16,589 nucleotides of DNA from Candidatus Pacearchaeota archaeon (GCA_018304175.1 JAGVWT010000014.1:1-16589), one strand, 5' to 3'. Counted from the stretch's first letter, positions 313-15,439 are shown. A program made the numbers and translations. Notes: generated from the sequence alone by a model not told the origin.

Positions 313-1266
313 TCACAAAACCTTGAAATCAATTCTGACACGGAATTTGTAAGGTGCAATTTCACCTGCTTTTTTTACATTGAGGATTTTTATTTTCTTT
401 TTTGATTTTTTCGCCTCCTCATTTATTTTTTTCTTAACTGATGGAATTTCTTCCTCTTTGCAAAAATCATAGTAAAATACAACTGTATTTTTTTTGCTCA
501 ATGAAAACGCTTCTTTCAAAAAACTTTCTTTAAGTTGAGGGCGCGGCATGACAATAAAATCGAATTCGTGGGGCACCAAGGTTCCCCTTACGATAACCCC
601 TCCTTTAATTGCTCGTTCGTTATCACTCACTCTATTTGATATCACTCCAAGTCGGCGTCCCGCACGACTTTCCACATAATTTTTATTTAACAGATAATTC
701 TGTTTAGATATCTTTTTGTTAATTTGCGAACGCGAGTGAGCAAGTATTTTTTTAACAGTTTTTCTTATATCTCCTTGGATTATCTGAACATTATCTTTGA
801 GTTTGTTAAGTTCAACATTCAGTTTTGCGTATTTGCTTGCTTCTTTGTTAATTTCAGCTGAATAAACTTTTGCTTTGGATTTTTTTGCTATAACAATGCT
901 ATAAGGGGCAACTCCAGCAAACATTACCAAAACTTTTGAAGATTTTTTAATTTTTGAAGCAATCTCTTTCCTTTCATTGCTTAATCGTGGGGAAAAGTAT
1001 GTTTTGTCTACATTAAATCTGAAAACGCATTCATTTTCCCTGTAGAGTGCTTCTTTAGTTTTAATTCCTAACAAATGCTTTGTCTGCTGTTTTCTTAGCC
1101 TTCCCTTGAATTTTCCGGTTTTTTCAAGAACTGTTTTAATTGTAGGATTTTTTTTCAGCAACTTTTCAGCAATTTTTTTCTTTTCTTTTCCTTTCATATT
1201 TCGCGAGAATTTCAAAATTGCTATATTTCCCACAATATCAAAACCTTTTAGATTTTCAATTTTCAT
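313..1266 (-). CDS. trm5: tRNA (guanine-37-N1) methyltransferase, Trm5/Met-10+ family, lacking the N-terminal D1 domain and carrying a ~55-59 aa in-frame insertion
   Basis: Motifs FDIVGNIAI, ENECVFRFNVDKTYFSPRLSNER, SAM-binding MFAGVAPY, AEIN, GDIRK, FDFIVMPRP, YYDF and YKFRVRIDF. Confidence 0.9.
   Translation of the reverse strand: MKIENLKGFDIVGNIAILKFSRNMKGKEKKKIAEKLLKKNPTIKTVLEKTGKFKGRLRKQQTKHLLGIKTKEALYRENECVFRFNVDKTYFSPRLSNERKEIASKIKKSSKVLVMFAGVAPYSIVIAKKSKAKVYSAEINKEASKYAKLNVELNKLKDNVQIIQGDIRKTVKKILAHSRSQINKKISKQNYLLNKNYVESRAGRRLGVISNRVSDNERAIKGGVIVRGTLVPHEFDFIVMPRPQLKESFLKEAFSLSKKNTVVFYYDFCKEEEIPSVKKKINEEAKKSKKKIKILNVKKAGEIAPYKFRVRIDFKVL
566..623. repeat. Palindromic (REP/MITE-like) element, copy A, inside the trm5 coding sequence
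   Basis: 570-608 matches 12287-12325 at 33/39 nt without gaps. Both copies start TCGT and end TCGYTCGTTAT (613-623 vs 12343-12353). Core hairpin GGGG(C/A)ACC-AA-GGTTCCCC. Confidence 0.8.
649..670. repeat. GC-rich hairpin AAGTCG-GCG-TCC-CGC-A-CGACTT within the trm5 insertion
   Basis: 9-bp stem with a one-base bulge, read directly from the sequence; strikingly GC-rich for this background. Confidence 0.6.
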
Positions 1267-2394: not shown

Positions 2395-3438
2395 TTAAAA
2401 CCACTTACCTAAATTTCTCTGTTTGTTTTTTTCTTTCGCGTCACGAAGTTTTTCAAGTTGCTTTTCAACTCTCTCATCTGAGAAGTCGTGGTCTTGAACG
2501 AGAATTTTCTTGATTTTTTTTTCATCTATTTCAGGAAATTTGAATTTTTCATCTTTGACATTTGCCTTATGGAATAATTCGAAAATTTCTTTCCAGTCAA
2601 ATTTGTCTTCATCACTAAGATTTAAGAATTGTTCTTCAATACTTTTGAAAATTAAAACAGGCTGTTTGTATTTTTGCACTATCTGAAGTGCTTTTTTCTG
2701 TCCGATTCCAGGAATGCCGCGAGGATTGTAGTCTGTACCAACAAGAATTCCAAGACATATCAATTGGTCAAGATTTATTCCTAGAAAGTTTAGAACTTTA
2801 TCAAGTTCGATTATCTCTGGTTTGACTTCAACCCAACCTGAAAAAGTTTTTCTTTTTCTTGCTAAAGTTAAATTTCTTATAAGTCTCGGAGTCCCGAAGA
2901 GCAAACTGTCATAATCTTGACTTACACTTGCAAAAATTTTATCCTGATTTTTTCTACATAAATATGCTGCTTCTGCTTCTCCTTCGCTCGGAGCTTGAAT
3001 TATTGGAATGCCCATAGAAACTAAAAGTTCTTTGCTTTCTTGAATCATTTCATCATTTAATCTTGTTAATTGTGAGCTGTAACGTCGCATTAATTCTAAA
3101 TCATCTGCTTTTCTCGCGGCTTCATATTTTTCCTTTGTGGAATCTCTGAACTCTTTTCTTTTACTATGTATTTTGTGTTTTAATTCAGGGGCTTCACCAT
3201 CAAAAACATAAACAAGGCTTAATCCTTCTGATAATAAAGAAATGTTTCTGTAGAATAATCCTGACAAGTGTGATGTGACTCTTTTTTTTGAGTCCATTAA
3301 AGGAGTGCCGTCTGGCTGTCGTACAGTTGTGAGAAACTGATAAAGTATGTTAAATGCGTCGACACAAAGTATTTTACCTCTCAGTTCTGGAATTTCAATT
3401 TCCCTTCTTGGAATTATTTCGCTTATATTCAATCCCAT
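2395..3438 (-). CDS. fen1: Flap endonuclease 1
   Basis: Motifs DAFNILYQFL, RQPDGTPL, TSHLSGLFYR, VFDG, APSEGEAEAA, SQDYDSLLFG, GTDYNPRGIPGIG and C-terminal PIP box QRNLGKWF. Confidence 0.97.
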   Translation of the reverse strand: MGLNISEIIPRREIEIPELRGKILCVDAFNILYQFLTTVRQPDGTPLMDSKKRVTSHLSGLFYRNISLLSEGLSLVYVFDGEAPELKHKIHSKRKEFRDSTKEKYEAARKADDLELMRRYSSQLTRLNDEMIQESKELLVSMGIPIIQAPSEGEAEAAYLCRKNQDKIFASVSQDYDSLLFGTPRLIRNLTLARKRKTFSGWVEVKPEIIELDKVLNFLGINLDQLICLGILVGTDYNPRGIPGIGQKKALQIVQKYKQPVLIFKSIEEQFLNLSDEDKFDWKEIFELFHKANVKDEKFKFPEIDEKKIKKILVQDHDFSDERVEKQLEKLRDAKEKNKQRNLGKWF

Positions 3439-7117: not shown

Positions 7118-7867
7118 TTATTCCAAAAGCAAAAGTGAGGCCATTATCAAAATTCCCAACAGGAACGCTAAAAGCTGAAGCAAAGATGATTTTATTCCTG
7201 TGTGTTTATTCAGTTCAGGGATTAAATCACTACCTGCTATATATATGAATCCACCGATAGCAAAAGGAACAATCATGAATGCTATGTTTTCTATGTAGCT
7301 TGTTAAAAATAACGCAAAGATTACTCCAAGCAAAGCCACTAATCCCGAAACAAAATTAAGAAATAATGCTTTACCTCTTGAAAATCCCCCATGAAGTAAA
7401 ACTCCAAAGTCGCCGATTTCTTGAGGTATTTCGTGTAAAATAACTGCAATGGTCGCCGCAATTCCTACTTGTACATTGATGAGATAAGCAGAAGCGATAA
7501 TCAGTCCGTCAAGAAAATTGTGTAAAGCATCGCCGATAATTATCATTAGCGAAAATGAATGCACTTTTTCATCGCTGAAATGCACATGATGGTGATGCCA
7601 ATGAATTACTTTTTCCAGAATAAAAAATAAAACTATTCCTCCAAGTATCATTACAGAAATATAAACACTAAATCCGTGTTCTTCAATTAATTCAGGAAGA
7701 AGATGCAAAAAAGCTCCAGCAAATAATGCTCCTGCTGCAAAGCTAACGAGGTAAATAAGCCAACCCTTAAGTTTCTTTTCATTTATAGAAATTGTTAGTG
7801 CGCCTACAAGCGAGATAAGACTAACTACAAAGACACTTACAAAAGCATAGATCCATATGTCCAACAT
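7118..7867 (-). CDS. ZIP-family (ZupT/SLC39) divalent metal transporter
   Basis: Multiple TM helices, FLHLLPE, His-rich loop HWHHHHVH, and signature motifs LHNFLDG and LHEIPQEIGDF. Confidence 0.93.
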   Translation of the reverse strand: MLDIWIYAFVSVFVVSLISLVGALTISINEKKLKGWLIYLVSFAAGALFAGAFLHLLPELIEEHGFSVYISVMILGGIVLFFILEKVIHWHHHHVHFSDEKVHSFSLMIIIGDALHNFLDGLIIASAYLINVQVGIAATIAVILHEIPQEIGDFGVLLHGGFSRGKALFLNFVSGLVALLGVIFALFLTSYIENIAFMIVPFAIGGFIYIAGSDLIPELNKHTGIKSSLLQLLAFLLGILIMASLLLLE

Positions 7868-10823: not shown

Positions 10824-11264
10824 TTAATTTTTTAGTTTATGTTGATACCATTCAGCATAACGCCTTTTACCTCCATCATATCCCCCCTTATAGAGTTCGC
10901 GTAGTTTAATTGAAGGTACATTAAAGACTTCTTGAATGTGGCTCTCTATTTCAGTAATGGTTTGCCTTACATGATTCTCATATTCTTCAAATCTTTTTCC
11001 TAATTCATCAGCCGGTATTCTTTCTTGTCTACAATAAATAGTACCAAAGTTAACCATCTCTTGAATGTTATCTAAAAGAGCAAGAACGTTATTATGTGGC
11101 CATTTATCTATATTATACTTTCTTTCATAATCATTATACCATTTGTCTTTGAAAGCTTCTTCACCTAATAAATTTTTTAAGACATCAAAAGGATATAAGA
11201 CAGGCTCAACGTCATACATTAAATCACCCACTCTCTGAAAAAATTTCTCTAATTTTTTTGTCAT
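10824..11264 (-). CDS. Hypothetical protein, 146 aa
   Basis: ORF with normal composition, last in a tightly packed minus-strand cluster; no family recognised. Confidence 0.7.
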   Translation of the reverse strand: MTKKLEKFFQRVGDLMYDVEPVLYPFDVLKNLLGEEAFKDKWYNDYERKYNIDKWPHNNVLALLDNIQEMVNFGTIYCRQERIPADELGKRFEEYENHVRQTITEIESHIQEVFNVPSIKLRELYKGGYDGGKRRYAEWYQHKLKN

Positions 11265-11829: not shown

Positions 11830-12195
11830 TTATATTAATTCTCCTTCTGAATCTTGATAATCAATAAACAAAAAGGTTTGATATTTTGATGGTAATTTTC
11901 CCTGTTTTGCGTCACTAACAATTTTATTTATAACAAATTCAATATTTTTCTCATTTACAAATCCTTGAAAACCAAAATGAGTATCTGCTGGACTGTTGTA
12001 TGATATGTGGTTAAAAGTTCCTGCAAGATAGCTTTCCCTTAACATTTCCGAGTGTCGCCTTGCTAAGAATTCAGAATTTAGTTCTATAATTGGTGATTCA
12101 TTAAGAGGTATATTTTCTCCCCAAACCCTCTTTACTTCACCTATACTCCTAATTCTTTCTAATTCGTCTAAAAATTTATCTAAGGGTGTTTCCAT
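11830..12195 (-). CDS. Hypothetical protein, 121 aa
   Basis: ORF with a GGAG upstream and a TATA-like ATTTAAATA further upstream; first gene of the cluster. Confidence 0.7.
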   Translation of the reverse strand: METPLDKFLDELERIRSIGEVKRVWGENIPLNESPIIELNSEFLARRHSEMLRESYLAGTFNHISYNSPADTHFGFQGFVNEKNIEFVINKIVSDAKQGKLPSKYQTFLFIDYQDSEGELI

Positions 12196-12280
12196 ATCTT
12201 CTCCAAAATTTTAACATATTTAAATCTTACTGTTTTGTTGTTCTTTTAAAAAGGTGACAAATTGCTCACCGCAAAGTTGC

Positions 12281-12353
12281 TCGTAAGGGGAACCAAGTTT
12301 CCCCTTACACTAACCCCTTCTTAAAAAACGCTCTCTCTGAAGTCGCTCGTTAT
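12281..12353. repeat. Palindromic (REP/MITE-like) element, copy B, intergenic
   Basis: GTAAGGGGAAC-CAA-GTTTCCCCTTAC hairpin followed by TAACCCCT and TCGCTCGTTAT; homologous to 566-623. Confidence 0.8.
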
Positions 12354-12506: not shown

Positions 12507-14801
12507 TTATCCAAAATAACTTCCGCTTGTAGGCATTGCAGCTTTTGAGGACCTGAGGTAGTTTTCCTCTATTTTCTTGTAAACTTCAATCATTGGCTTG
12601 CTTACGCTCGGTTTGACTTTTTTCAGCGCGTCTTCAAAATGTTTTTTCTTCACGCTTTTTGCATTTATGTCTTCTCTCAGCGAAAGCATTGCAGCCTCTC
12701 TTGCAAGAGCTTCTATATCTGCTCCTGTATAACCCTGAGTTTTTTTCGCGATGTCTTCAAGGTTTACATCTTTTGCGAGTGGCATGTTTTTTGTGTGAAT
12801 TTTCAAAACTTGTAATCTTCCATCTTCTTCAGGAGCACCCACGAGCAAAATCCTGTCGAATCTTCCAGGACGTAAAAGCGCAGGGTCTAACATATCTGGT
12901 CTGTTAGTAGCTCCAATGATTAAAACATCTTTCAAATCTTCCAAACCATCCATCTCTGCGAGAATTTGATTCAGAACTCTTTCAGTGACCCTTGTTCCCG
13001 CTTCAATTCCTCTTTTGCCTGCGAGAGCATCAACTTCATCAAAAAATATTACGCAAGGTGCAACTTGGCGTGCACGCTCGAAAATTTTTCTTACTCCTTC
13101 TTCTGATTTCCCAACCCACATGCTTAACAATGAAGGTCCCTTTACTTGAATGAAGTTAGCTCCTGATTCTTTTGCGACTGCTTTTGCTAAAAGTGTTTTT
13201 CCAGTTCCTGGAGGACCGTAAAGCAAAATTCCCCTGCTTGGTCTTATGCCCATTCTCACAAATGTTTCTGGATATTTCATCGGCCATTCAACAGCTTCTC
13301 TGAGTTCGCCTTTGATTTCATCTAACCCTCCAACAGAATCCCAGTCAACATCAGGAGTTTCAACTAGAACCTCACGCATTGCACTAGGTCTTACTACTTT
13401 CAAAGCTTCCATAAAATCTTCTTGTTTCACGACAAGTTTTTCAAGTATATCACTGGGAATTTGTTCTTCTTCGTCGAGTTTCATTTTTGGCAAGAATTTT
13501 CTTAAAACATTAATTGCAGCTTCTTTCGCCAATGCTTCCAAATCTGCACCAACAAATCCATGAGTTACAGAAGCTAGTTTTTCAAGGTCGACTTCTCTTA
13601 AAGGCATCCCTCTTGTGTGGATTTTCAAAATTGAAAGTCTTCCTTCTTTGCCTGGAACGCTTATTTCAATTTCTCTGTCAAATCTCCCAGGTCTTCGTAA
13701 TGCAGGGTCTATAGAATTAATTCTATTTGTTGCTCCGATGACAATAACTTTACCACGAGATTTCATTCCATCCATCATTGTCAGTATTTGTGAAACAACT
13801 CTTCTTTCTACTTCCCCCATTGTTTCTTCTCTTTTAGGTGCGATTGCATCTATTTCGTCGATGAAAATAATTGCTGGAGATGTTTTCTCGGCTTCCTCGA
13901 ACAAGTCACGAATTTTTTTCTCGCTTTCTCCGTAGAATTTTGACATTATTTCTGGACCGTTTAGCAATATGAAGTTTGCATCTGATTCATTCGCGACAGC
14001 TTTTGCCAAGAGAGTTTTTCCTGTTCCAGGAGGACCGTGAAGCAAAACACCTTTTGGAGGTTCTATTCCCAACTTTTCAAAAATTTCCGGATGCTTCAAT
14101 GGAATTTCTACCATTTCGCGAATTTTTTTGATTTCTTCACTCAAACCACCTATATCTTCGTAGTTTATCTCAGGAAATTTTTCATCTGTGATTTCAATTG
14201 CTTTTGGATTCAGGACAACTTCTGTGTTTTCGGTAATGATTGTTGGTAGGTTTGGATTTGAAGTCGCGACAATGAATTTTATCTGCGTTAATCTACCCCC
14301 TAAATCTCCGAGTCCCATTCCTCCGAAAAAATCTCCGAATATGTCATGGAATTCTCCGCCGAAATCTTCTGAAATTAAATCTCTTCTTTTTTGAACTCCG
14401 CCAAGAACAACAATGTCACCTTTCAAAACCGCTCTTCCCAATAAACCGCGTTTCAATCCTTCAGAGTCACCTTGAATCATTACATTTTTCTGCATTGGAG
14501 CTATGATTATTTTTTTCGCCTCTTTTACTTCTGCTTTTGATACAGTTACAAAATCTCCAATTCCTGTTTTTGCGTTTCTCCTGATTATTCCATCGATTCT
14601 TAAAATTCCCTCGCCGACGTCGGTAGGATATGCTCTATCGACGATTGCAATTGTTTCCCTATTTCCTTTTATTAATATAACATCGCCTCGCTTAATGTCG
14701 AGAGTTCTCATTATCTCTGAGTCAATTCTTGCAATTCCTTTGTATGCGTCGTCAGGAATCGCTTCAACAACTTTTAGTCTTACTGGTTTTGCCGGTGCCA
14801 T
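12507..14801 (-). CDS. cdc48: Cdc48/VCP/VAT double-ring AAA+ ATPase
   Basis: N domain, two Walker A motifs (GPPGTGKT), Walker B motifs FIDEID and FFDEVD, and two SRH motifs (RPGRFDR). A GGAGG site lies upstream at 14816-14820. Confidence 0.97.
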
Positions 14802-14802
14802 T

Positions 14803-15057
14803 TTAATTTAAACTTCCTCCAATTTTTAATCTCCCACTATTTCTTTCATCAATTAATTGTCTGTATGATTGAAATCTTTCAGGTTGATAAATACTTTTGT
14901 GGAAATCGCACATATGTCCTAGTCCTTCAACATAATTTATTCTCGTCCTTAGCTCAGTTGGTGTATCTTTCCTAATGCCTGTGGACTCAAGGCAGATTAC
15001 ACACTTATAATCCAAGCTAGAGGTTTTTATTGAAAAATTTATTATTTCAGCTGCCAT
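14803..15057 (-). CDS. Small putative zinc-finger protein, 84 aa (CxxC...CxxH)
   Basis: CVIC...[21 protein letters not shown] sits 8 nt upstream. It overlaps the upstream gene by 11 nt and ends 1 nt before the cdc48 ATG. Confidence 0.65.
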
Positions 15058-15439
15058 TTTTTTTCTCCTTTACCTTTGCGATTTCATTTAGATTTTCGCC
15101 GAAATTTATTGACAATCTTCCCATTTCTTCAAAACAAAGTTTTACCATATCATCCATTATTCTTCTTTGCGCGTTCATGAATGAAACTATTTCCTTTGGT
15201 ATTGAAACTGCGTAGCTGTTTCCGACAAGTCTCATTTTTACGCTGAACTCCTTGTTCCTTAAATTTATAAATTTATTGTAATTCTGCTCGTCAACTGGAT
15301 GAATGATTTTTTCATTGCAACTTTTTTTCGGACAAATCATTGTCCTCATTATGAATCCATTTCTGATTACATTTGCTCTTTCCATTTCTGAATTGCATTT
15401 TTTGCATAAAATCTTGTTGTCAAAAATATCATTTACCAT
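15047..15439 (-). CDS. Zn-ribbon plus AbrB/MazE/SpoVT-type DNA-binding protein, putative transcription regulator
   Basis: N-terminal CKKC...CPKKSC; C-terminal KMRLVGNSYAVSIPKEI, a typical swapped-hairpin AbrB signature. Confidence 0.8.
   Translation of the reverse strand: MVNDIFDNKILCKKCNSEMERANVIRNGFIMRTMICPKKSCNEKIIHPVDEQNYNKFINLRNKEFSVKMRLVGNSYAVSIPKEIVSFMNAQRRIMDDMVKLCFEEMGRLSINFGENLNEIAKVKEKKNGS

Follow-up and report, generated by a model that had tools for sequence, protein, structure and literature searches.

Two small repeats at one site of a predicted Trm5-type tRNA methyltransferase gene in a Pacearchaeota genome

The window analysed here, a stretch of 16,589 nucleotides from a Candidatus Pacearchaeota archaeon (GCA_018304175.1, JAGVWT010000014.1:1-16589), carries a trm5 gene for a predicted tRNA methyltransferase, whose catalytic domain holds two additional segments: a short hairpin module (copy A) and a long insert of a separate repeat family. 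Another hairpin module (copy B) is found between genes of the same window (Table 1). The source genome (G000) is a metagenome-assembled genome (MAG) of 544 kb in 17 contigs, with 33% GC. An earlier sequence-only reading had described the extra stretch of the protein as a palindromic repeat inserted in frame. We consider it likely that two small non-autonomous repeats, nested at one permissive Trm5 site, gave rise to the stretch by being translated.

The trm5 gene and its two inserts

The encoded protein (P0001) contains the TRM5/TYW2 methyltransferase and TYW2 N-terminal domains (Pfam PF02475 and PF25133, the former with E 4.7e-34 and 118.2 bits against a cut-off of 28) and is devoid of the D1 domain found in characterised archaeal Trm5. 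Its phmmer matches in the PDB were Trm5b, Trm5a and MJ0883. An AlphaFold model, built on 30 orthologues, has a mean predicted local distance difference test (pLDDT) score of 84.7, with the methyltransferase core above 90, and superposes on Trm5b (5yac) with Z 26.4, a root-mean-square deviation of 2.9 and 249/317 residues aligned, and on 2yx1 with Z 25.8; the score against TYW2 (3a25) is similar (Z 25.8). By domains and modelled fold P0001 is a Trm5/TYW2-type methyltransferase, for which m1G37 activity is predicted.

Exactly 64 residues, with zero stops, separate GDIRKT (residues 165-170) from FDFIVMPRP (235-243), as the sequence-only reading had estimated, and its statement that characterised Trm5 proteins have a short linker here agrees with 5yac, where the counterpart motifs GDSREI and ADRIIMNLP are only about 3 residues apart. 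A peptide spanning AIKGGVIVRGTLVPHEFDFIVMPRPQLK would stem from the translated insert. As 249 of the 317 residues superpose on Trm5b, the insert is the unaligned part. Residues 167-198 are modelled as an extended helix with falling confidence, residues 199-220 as disorder (pLDDT <50), and GVIVRGTLVP as a beta-hairpin of small size, with strands at 223-226 and 229-232, directly continued by beta4 (235-240). The structure prediction that had been proposed as a check thus places the insert at the periphery, with low pLDDT, beside a confident core, which is compatible with the fold. The known class I methyltransferase topology puts the loop that enters beta4 at the sheet edge, opposite the S-adenosylmethionine (SAM)-binding and catalytic loops after beta1 and beta4; from this topology the Trm5 insert would be on the surface, far from the active site.

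The two segments contribute unequally to the extra residues. Copy A encodes GGVIVRGTLVPH, i.e. 13 of the 64, matches the profile of the hairpin family (nhmmer E 1.2e-11) and resembles the intergenic DNA at 12284-12321; with 0.00 chance occurrences in the window expected for its 18-nt core with up to 3 mismatches, the earlier claim that the DNA at this end of the insert is a second copy of the intergenic hairpin held. The long insert accounts for 46 of the residues and comes from a second, unrelated family, so that the palindrome reading applies to the 13 hairpin residues and not to the whole stretch. Its two ends, in mRNA sense CTTGCTCACTCGCGTTCGCAAATT and GTGAGTGATAACGAACGAGCAATT, are imperfectly inverted and use CGN/TCG codons that are rare in this genome.

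The long insert is variably present or absent among close Trm5 orthologues, where such inserts share the start (Y/H)S(R/H)SQI(N/D), have a variable middle and end in one of two ways, RVSDNERAI-P or (Y/N/F)RA(Q/K)RDKL..IP. No second copy of the window's subfamily was found in the source genome. A related end motif of this second family, TCGAGCNNAGCGAGNNAA, occurs in 13 of 151 genomes of the archaeal family, with nine copies in G026; the genes that carry it in frame are two for Kae1/TsaD, one for an Elp3-like radical-SAM protein, one for RsmB/F (read in another frame) and a second Trm5-like gene, and further copies lie between genes. Copies with the end motif TCGAGCGAAGCGAGACAA, which would be translated in these four kinds of gene, were seen in relatives (L113, L117, L120, L121, L128 and the G026 contigs L121-L126); after two of the G026 copies comes a GC-rich stretch with the capacity to encode a peptide rich in RGG (IRGGGRGRGG). 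Sequence of the GCTCGT(TCG) type, like the ends of the long-insert family, adjoins copy A on its right (609-622), copy B on both sides and the hairpin copies at L052 and C13:54235 on their left. A resemblance of the long insert to an antisense tRNA intron, suggested by eye, was rejected: comparison by local alignment with all 13 ARAGORN-predicted introns of the source genome, with the intron of its tRNA-Asp and with the region of copy B yielded nothing beyond matches of 15-23 nt at z of about 3.

Turnover at the Trm5 site and copies in other genes

The state of the site could be classified in 115 of the 120 closest orthologues: 40 are empty (GDIKKxAKKIKEKFDVIVMPRP), 13 carry a pristine hairpin, 23 a decayed one and 39 a long insert. 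The empty site that the orthologue alignment had been expected to define is therefore real; its flanks show AAA/AAA only, versus duplications of 13-25 nt at the tRNA copies described below. Decayed units measure 12-13 residues (e.g., KGRLIVKGSLVPL and KRGLKVNNEIVPQ), the window protein bears long insert and hairpin together, and two Trm5 proteins have tandem 12-residue units (36 nt), one with two and the other with three. Along a FastTree phylogeny computed without the insert columns the states are scattered almost at random (52 changes against a shuffled mean of 59), and the well-supported branches alone force at least six changes for the pristine hairpin. Well-supported sisters only 0.05 substitutions per site apart differ in state (P0003 with hairpin and P0019 with long insert; P0005 with long insert and P0097 empty), and further differing pairs are P0022 (decayed) with P0119 (empty) and P0004 (hairpin) with P0091 (long). 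In P0002, which at 76% identity is the closest relative of the window protein, the site holds a long insert and no hairpin; about one third of orthologues likewise lack copy A. Because some 40 of the 115 orthologues are empty and near-identical sisters differ, the stretch is to be regarded as an insertion and not as native sequence.

At the DNA level, sequences from 75 metagenomic orthologues show the hairpin unit between ...AAA and AAA TTT GAT, in a series from base-for-base consensus copies to AT-drifted remnants of the same length. Identity at third codon positions between Trm5 genes is 0.77-0.92 in the hairpin core versus 0.34-0.50 (saturated) in the flanks, and copy A shares 95% identity with the copy of another Trm5 gene in which the third positions of the flanks are saturated. 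The core is made of four-fold-degenerate Gly, Val, Arg, Thr, Leu and Pro codons, therefore selection on the peptide cannot keep these positions; pristine copies must either have arrived recently and independently or be conserved as nucleotide sequence. The comparison suggests that they are recent.

The reading frame is kept throughout. Twenty-seven long inserts contain no in-frame stop in 969 codons (the other frames have 5.5% and 12.2% per codon, about 86 expected), a count biased by the open reading frame (ORF) filter; the unfiltered check of Trm5 in the 117 family genomes with a match found no in-frame stops either. In every orthologue all inserts are a multiple of three, decayed copies included.

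Copy A is the sole coding copy of the module in the source genome. Elsewhere, an RsmB/F-type m5C RNA methyltransferase of G224 is encoded on two contigs, each with a full copy and a second, partial or degraded one, and the RsmB/F copy of a second, unrelated genome (L239) occupies the same place, directly in front of the DAPC motif. As in Trm5, these copies are in the loop entering beta4 of a Rossmann methyltransferase. A GatB/E protein in a relative's genome has the module within its N-terminal region. The earlier idea of an element that colonises protein loops and creates new peptide sequence stands for these three in-frame hosts, but coding sequence is a minor niche of a module found mostly at tRNA genes. 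All coding copies are antisense to the element, read as (K)GGV(S/N/I)VRG(T/N)LVP(L/H) and contain just the 36-39 nt core, never the second hairpin of longer copies. Reading the consensus by hand in six frames gave one stop-free antisense frame, so that the frame is forced once the orientation is given, and two stop-free sense frames (three in a GTG variant); open frames thus do not explain the antisense bias, which is seen in few hosts (Trm5, RsmB/F twice, GatB/E).

Clear coding hosts of both repeat families, few as they are, act on RNA and mostly on tRNA (Trm5, RsmB/F, GatB/E, Kae1/TsaD and Elp3-like). An MFS-transporter gene at L222 was rejected as a host; there the element is upstream of the likely start codon and beside a tRNA-Gly gene. 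A peptide census with a 40-residue tandem-hairpin probe (P0039, residues 173-212) in a database of 5.8 billion proteins, with 28 candidates scored, revealed nothing new.

The hairpin module, its tRNA contexts and its distribution

The module has a core of about 39 nt, (A)TGAGGGG followed by a variable loop and CCCCTTACACTAACCCCTCC; the consensus of the source-genome copies runs (A)TGAGGGG, 3-10 nt of variable loop or inner stem, CCCCTTACACTAACCCCT(CC). For the family as a whole we obtained a stem of 7-10 bp round an invariant GGGG/CCCC and then a conserved non-palindromic tail, TTACACTAACCCCT(CC), so the perfect 14-bp stem reconstructed earlier from copies A and B was an idealisation. Judged by its sequence, the element is no plain palindrome, being an asymmetric hairpin plus a conserved, predicted single-stranded tail. 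Variation in hairpin 1 concerns mostly the length of the inner stem, and in full-length copies a second small variable hairpin follows (CCUCC...GGAGG or AUCG...CGAU). The tail of copy A has CGA, versus CAC or CAA in every sense copy of the source genome.

Copy B, between the ORFs 11830-12195(-) and 12507-14801(-), folds with -19.2 kcal/mol (z -2.8) and is bordered by direct repeats matching at 8 of 9 positions, a possible target duplication; these repeats also resemble the GCTCGT(TCG) end of the long-insert family. No Rfam covariance model matched in the window at E<=1, and at the other copies only tRNA and RNase P models responded, owing to the host RNAs. Readings of the hairpin as a K-turn/L7Ae, C/D-box or H/ACA motif were dismissed, with no box motifs or tandem G.A pairs visible. 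Full-text literature searches for such elements in DPANN archaea returned no description, in line with the earlier remark that this is not a recognised element.

The 17 contigs of the source genome hold 13 clear copies and one decayed copy, the highest count of any genome searched, of which one is coding and two are intergenic (copy B and C13:54235); the further copies anticipated by the sequence-only reading thus exist. Eight of the 13 flank tRNA genes beside exact 13-25 nt duplicates of a tRNA end. Four of these are upstream of the tRNA gene, straight after an exact duplicate of its first 13-17 nt, which takes in up to 4 nt of leader; a TATA-like box precedes the distal duplicate, therefore a long structured leader is to be expected on the tRNA transcript. 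The other four are downstream, on the opposite strand, beside an exact duplicate of the 24-25 nt at the tRNA 3' end. Each of these tRNA-end inserts, about 75 nt in length, combines the module with a further hairpin and a short arm of sequence complementary to the end of the tRNA. In addition, the module forms the intron of tRNA-Asp(GTC), and a decayed copy was found in the intron of tRNA-Gly(GCC). Relatives show the same contexts, mostly duplicates of tRNA 5' ends, introns at position 37/38 and duplicates of 3' ends; use as a position-37 intron was seen in the tRNA-Asp of the source genome and at L048, L049, L054 and L056.

At L051/L234 (G264:C53 889-1018) two full tandem units of 96 nt, each made of the tRNA 5' duplicate, module and complementary arm, precede one tRNA, an arrangement that unequal recombination of the duplicates, or insertion more than once, could have produced. 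ARAGORN found 28 tRNAs in the source genome, about half of them with introns of 15-146 nt; those of tRNA-Glu and tRNA-Ala share a second, conserved intron type (TACGCTGAAA...GCTTCGCGA..TCGCAAAG) unrelated to the hairpin module.

The RNase P RNA of the source genome (C17:~7274-7674, L011) contains an insertion of about 50 nt, the module plus a second hairpin, directly after CR-I (GAGGAAGGUCC / GAGGAAGGUCCGGCCAC), which is missing in all 15 relatives aligned with MAFFT. This alignment led us to reject the assignment of the copy to the P3 helix given by the Rfam alignment, in which the 5' end of the RNA was mis-set, the true start being about 76 nt further upstream. The RNA scores below the Rfam gathering threshold (78.4 vs 84 bits), probably due to the insertion.

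A strict form of the motif was found in 25 of 301 genomes of the same Pacearchaeota-type family, with one hit for a reversed-pattern control, and was absent from 253 genomes representing 78 further families of the class. Most positive genomes have one to three copies, G224 has six and the source genome 13, and the other two genomes of the same genus (G162 and G247, 68-80% complete) yielded none, which suggests a recent burst or poor assembly of repeats elsewhere. Over 185,579 species genomes the 'CACCAAGGTT' subfamily gave 31 stretches, all in MAGs labelled Woesearchaeota, Pacearchaeota or Nanoarchaeota. The module is near-identical among genera with proteins that are 35-40% different; therefore either a conserved factor recognises it or it spreads horizontally. 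Of the mobile palindrome family proposed for this lineage, the restriction to the lineage stands, the palindrome gives way to an asymmetric hairpin, and mobility at the DNA level is suggested by comparative patterns of sequence.

Candidate mobilising genes were sought in the four repeat-rich genomes (G000, G224, G026 and G139, 71-88% complete). RAYT (Y1/HUH, PF01797), the partner put forward by the sequence-only reading, was found in none of them, while control genomes responded; TnpB (PF07282) occurred only in G224, Xer-type recombinases (PF00589) in all but G139, which has three module copies, and GIY-YIG genes (PF01541) in none, a single one in G264 adjoining no tRNA or repeat. RAYT, TnpB, tyrosine recombinase and GIY-YIG were accordingly set aside as mobilisers, since none of these four families tracks the module. 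The class of hairpin repeats associated with Ssn/GIY-YIG nucleases (PMC11893778) was rejected as well, with no linked GIY-YIG gene.

Table 1 Features of the window and of hairpin-module copies elsewhere
Feature	Position	Strand	Remarks
trm5 host gene	313..1266	minus	Trm5-type tRNA (m1G37) methyltransferase (predicted), 317 aa, protein P0001
Hairpin-module copy A	568..606	+ (element sense; antisense to trm5)	residues 221-233, KGGVIVRGTLVPH
Long insert	607..744	minus	residues 175-220 (LAHSRSQIN...RVSDNERAI); GC-rich ends, imperfect inverted repeats
Left direct repeat of copy B	12276..12284	+	GTTGCTCGT; read from sequence
Hairpin-module copy B	12285..12341	+	intergenic; hairpin 1, tail, weak second hairpin CUUC...GAAG; nhmmer E 1.4e-11
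Right direct repeat of copy B	12342..12350	+	GTCGCTCGT; read from sequence
5'-type tRNA inserts	C1:~10985-11075, C5:~14310-14400, C12:~15005-15090, C14:~60070-60165		G000
3'-type tRNA inserts	C4:~28500-28610, C8:~22973-23075, C13:~35200-35300, C14:~2960-3060		G000
Clear hairpin coding copies	window 568-606; L068, L072, L074, L226, L239		

Origin of the inserts and comparison with known systems

If two non-autonomous repeats did nest in trm5, the permissive site would be the loop just before beta4 of the Rossmann-type methyltransferase fold. The main home of the hairpin element would be tRNA genes (5' leaders, 3' trailers and the intron after position 37), from which it would occasionally reach other places. 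A copy in coding sequence would survive only if 36-39 nt long (a multiple of three), antisense in the stop-free frame and in a tolerant surface loop; it would then be translated as a beta-hairpin or loop of 12-13 residues, KGGVSVRGTLVPL, and with time would drift to AT-rich codons or disappear.

Some observations weigh against this scenario. No transposition event, excision footprint or clear target duplication is seen at the Trm5 site, and no gene of the families searched (PF01797, PF07282, PF00589 and PF01541) tracks the module. The argument for translation and against splicing comes from conservation of the frame, not from peptides, and the FastTree phylogeny has many weak branches. The single module copy of G559 (L226/L241, Trm5) and that of G560 (L239/L242, RsmB/F) are pristine, near-consensus and in coding sequence, which fits poorly with a source within the genome unless the assemblies are incomplete; besides incomplete assembly, allele exchange or nucleotide-level selection might account for it.

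The same two genomes speak for an explanation that we hold to be unlikely, in which the hairpin is kept in trm5 and other genes of RNA enzymes for a function of the nucleotide sequence, as a cis-acting mRNA structure, a protein-binding site or an antisense target; in the last version it would pair with sense element RNAs from pre-tRNA leaders and introns and couple expression of the modifying enzyme to tRNA processing. It would fit the exclusively antisense orientation of coding copies, given that the sense strand has two open frames, the RNA-directed (mostly tRNA-directed) activity of the clear hosts including Kae1/TsaD and Elp3-like of the second family, and the conserved third positions of the core. 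Yet many lineages have let the 12-codon unit decay to AT-rich codons or have none, the tail of copy A is unlike that of all sense copies in its genome, and the independent hosts are few; tolerance of non-essential modification enzymes to insertion explains the host bias equally well. The sole copies of G559 and G560, being without a sense partner, argue against any requirement for one. A broader version, to which we attach little credence, makes the module a recognition element of archaeal tRNA processing, whose antisense copies would be retained by pairing with released sense RNAs; if true, there would be a feedback between tRNA production and the capacity for tRNA modification, and the peptide would be a by-product. 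Also improbable is a lineage-specific loop of long standing in Pacearchaeota Trm5, inherited vertically and often lost, with non-coding copies being secondary or with selection on the peptide maintaining the similarity. That 36 of the 115 close orthologues have a 12-13-residue unit at the exact position, in a continuum of divergence, agrees with such a loop, but peptide selection could not hold third positions 77-92% identical amid saturated flanks, near-identical sisters differ in state, tandem units occur twofold and threefold, and the same DNA is present in tRNA genes, RNase P RNA, RsmB/F and GatB/E, by which this explanation is largely refuted.

The two remaining alternatives carry far less weight. 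Since several tRNAs have the module as a bona fide intron after position 37, the insert or a part of it might be an archaeal bulge-helix-bulge mRNA intron cut by the tRNA splicing endonuclease; this is very improbable and was rejected, because the inserts are stop-free and the Trm5 copy is antisense to the tRNA-intron version, and even decayed copies remain in frame. That a chimeric contig put the repeat into trm5 through faulty assembly or binning is scarcely credible: repeats can mis-assemble and the MAG is in 17 contigs, but the identical protein is recorded on eight contigs, the frame is intact on both sides, and hairpins in Trm5 are present in independent assemblies, including a single-cell genome.

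Two nested repeats in trm5 would provide a clear DPANN case of very small repeats written into essential-type enzymes and translated, and the Trm5 site, with its empty, fresh, tandem, decayed and lost states, would offer a natural time series and a system for studying how selfish DNA creates protein loops. One 39-nt module would link tRNA introns, inserts at tRNA ends, an insertion in RNase P RNA and translated loops, and the spread of archaeal tRNA introns would thereby be connected with a sequence family traceable through hundreds of genomes. In practice, such inserts inflate protein lengths, depress profile scores, as for the RNase P RNA, and could mislead when 'conserved insertions' are used as phylogenetic markers for DPANN.

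Short hairpin repeats are known from several systems. [quoted passage not shown] Unlike REP/REPIN, it is accompanied by no RAYT/Y1 gene in the four repeat-rich genomes. As for a possible MITE nature, its hairpin arms could serve as inverted repeats and copy B has the 9-bp direct repeat; no clear combination of terminal inverted repeats with a target duplication was seen, and a parent insertion sequence was not found with the four families searched. The coding-potential palindromic repeats of Methanocaldococcus jannaschii would be an archaeal precedent for palindromic repeats that are translated. Integrated elements of the pNOB8/SSV type have partial duplications of tRNA genes at their borders (PMC3293823); similarly, the DNA inserted at the tRNA copies lies between direct repeats taken from the 5' or 3' part of a tRNA, whose gene is intact. 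However, only about 75 nt lie between these repeats, with no integrase, and the likeness concerns the sister copies, not the one in Trm5.

In Thermoproteales, transposing tRNA introns (Fujishima et al. 2010, as described in PMC4090602) are short and near-identical in different tRNA genes and positions within a lineage, which implies spread at the DNA level by an unknown mechanism, and several copies of the module are likewise introns at the canonical 37/38 position. The Thermoproteales introns are described only in tRNAs, whereas the module also occupies leaders and trailers, RNase P RNA and translated coding sequence. Rickettsia palindromic elements (RPE; WPE in Wolbachia), as presented in two sources (PMC10969869, PMC1779305), are 100-150 bp long, in frame and translated. 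In comparison with these descriptions, the module shares the multi-copy hairpin repeats without genes of their own in a small, reduced genome, the intergenic and intragenic copies, the in-frame position in housekeeping genes with empty-site orthologues, a surface peptide compatible with the fold, lineage-specific proliferation, and old degraded copies (compare RPE-7 in PheT). It differs from them in being archaeal (DPANN), in its 36-39 nt core and consensus, in residing mainly at tRNA genes, and in having few coding copies, all antisense, concentrated at the Trm5 hot spot with rapid turnover; on account of its length, domain of life and consensus we do not file it as an RPE. By analogy, the module may be seen as an archaeal counterpart of the Rickettsia palindromic elements in behaviour.

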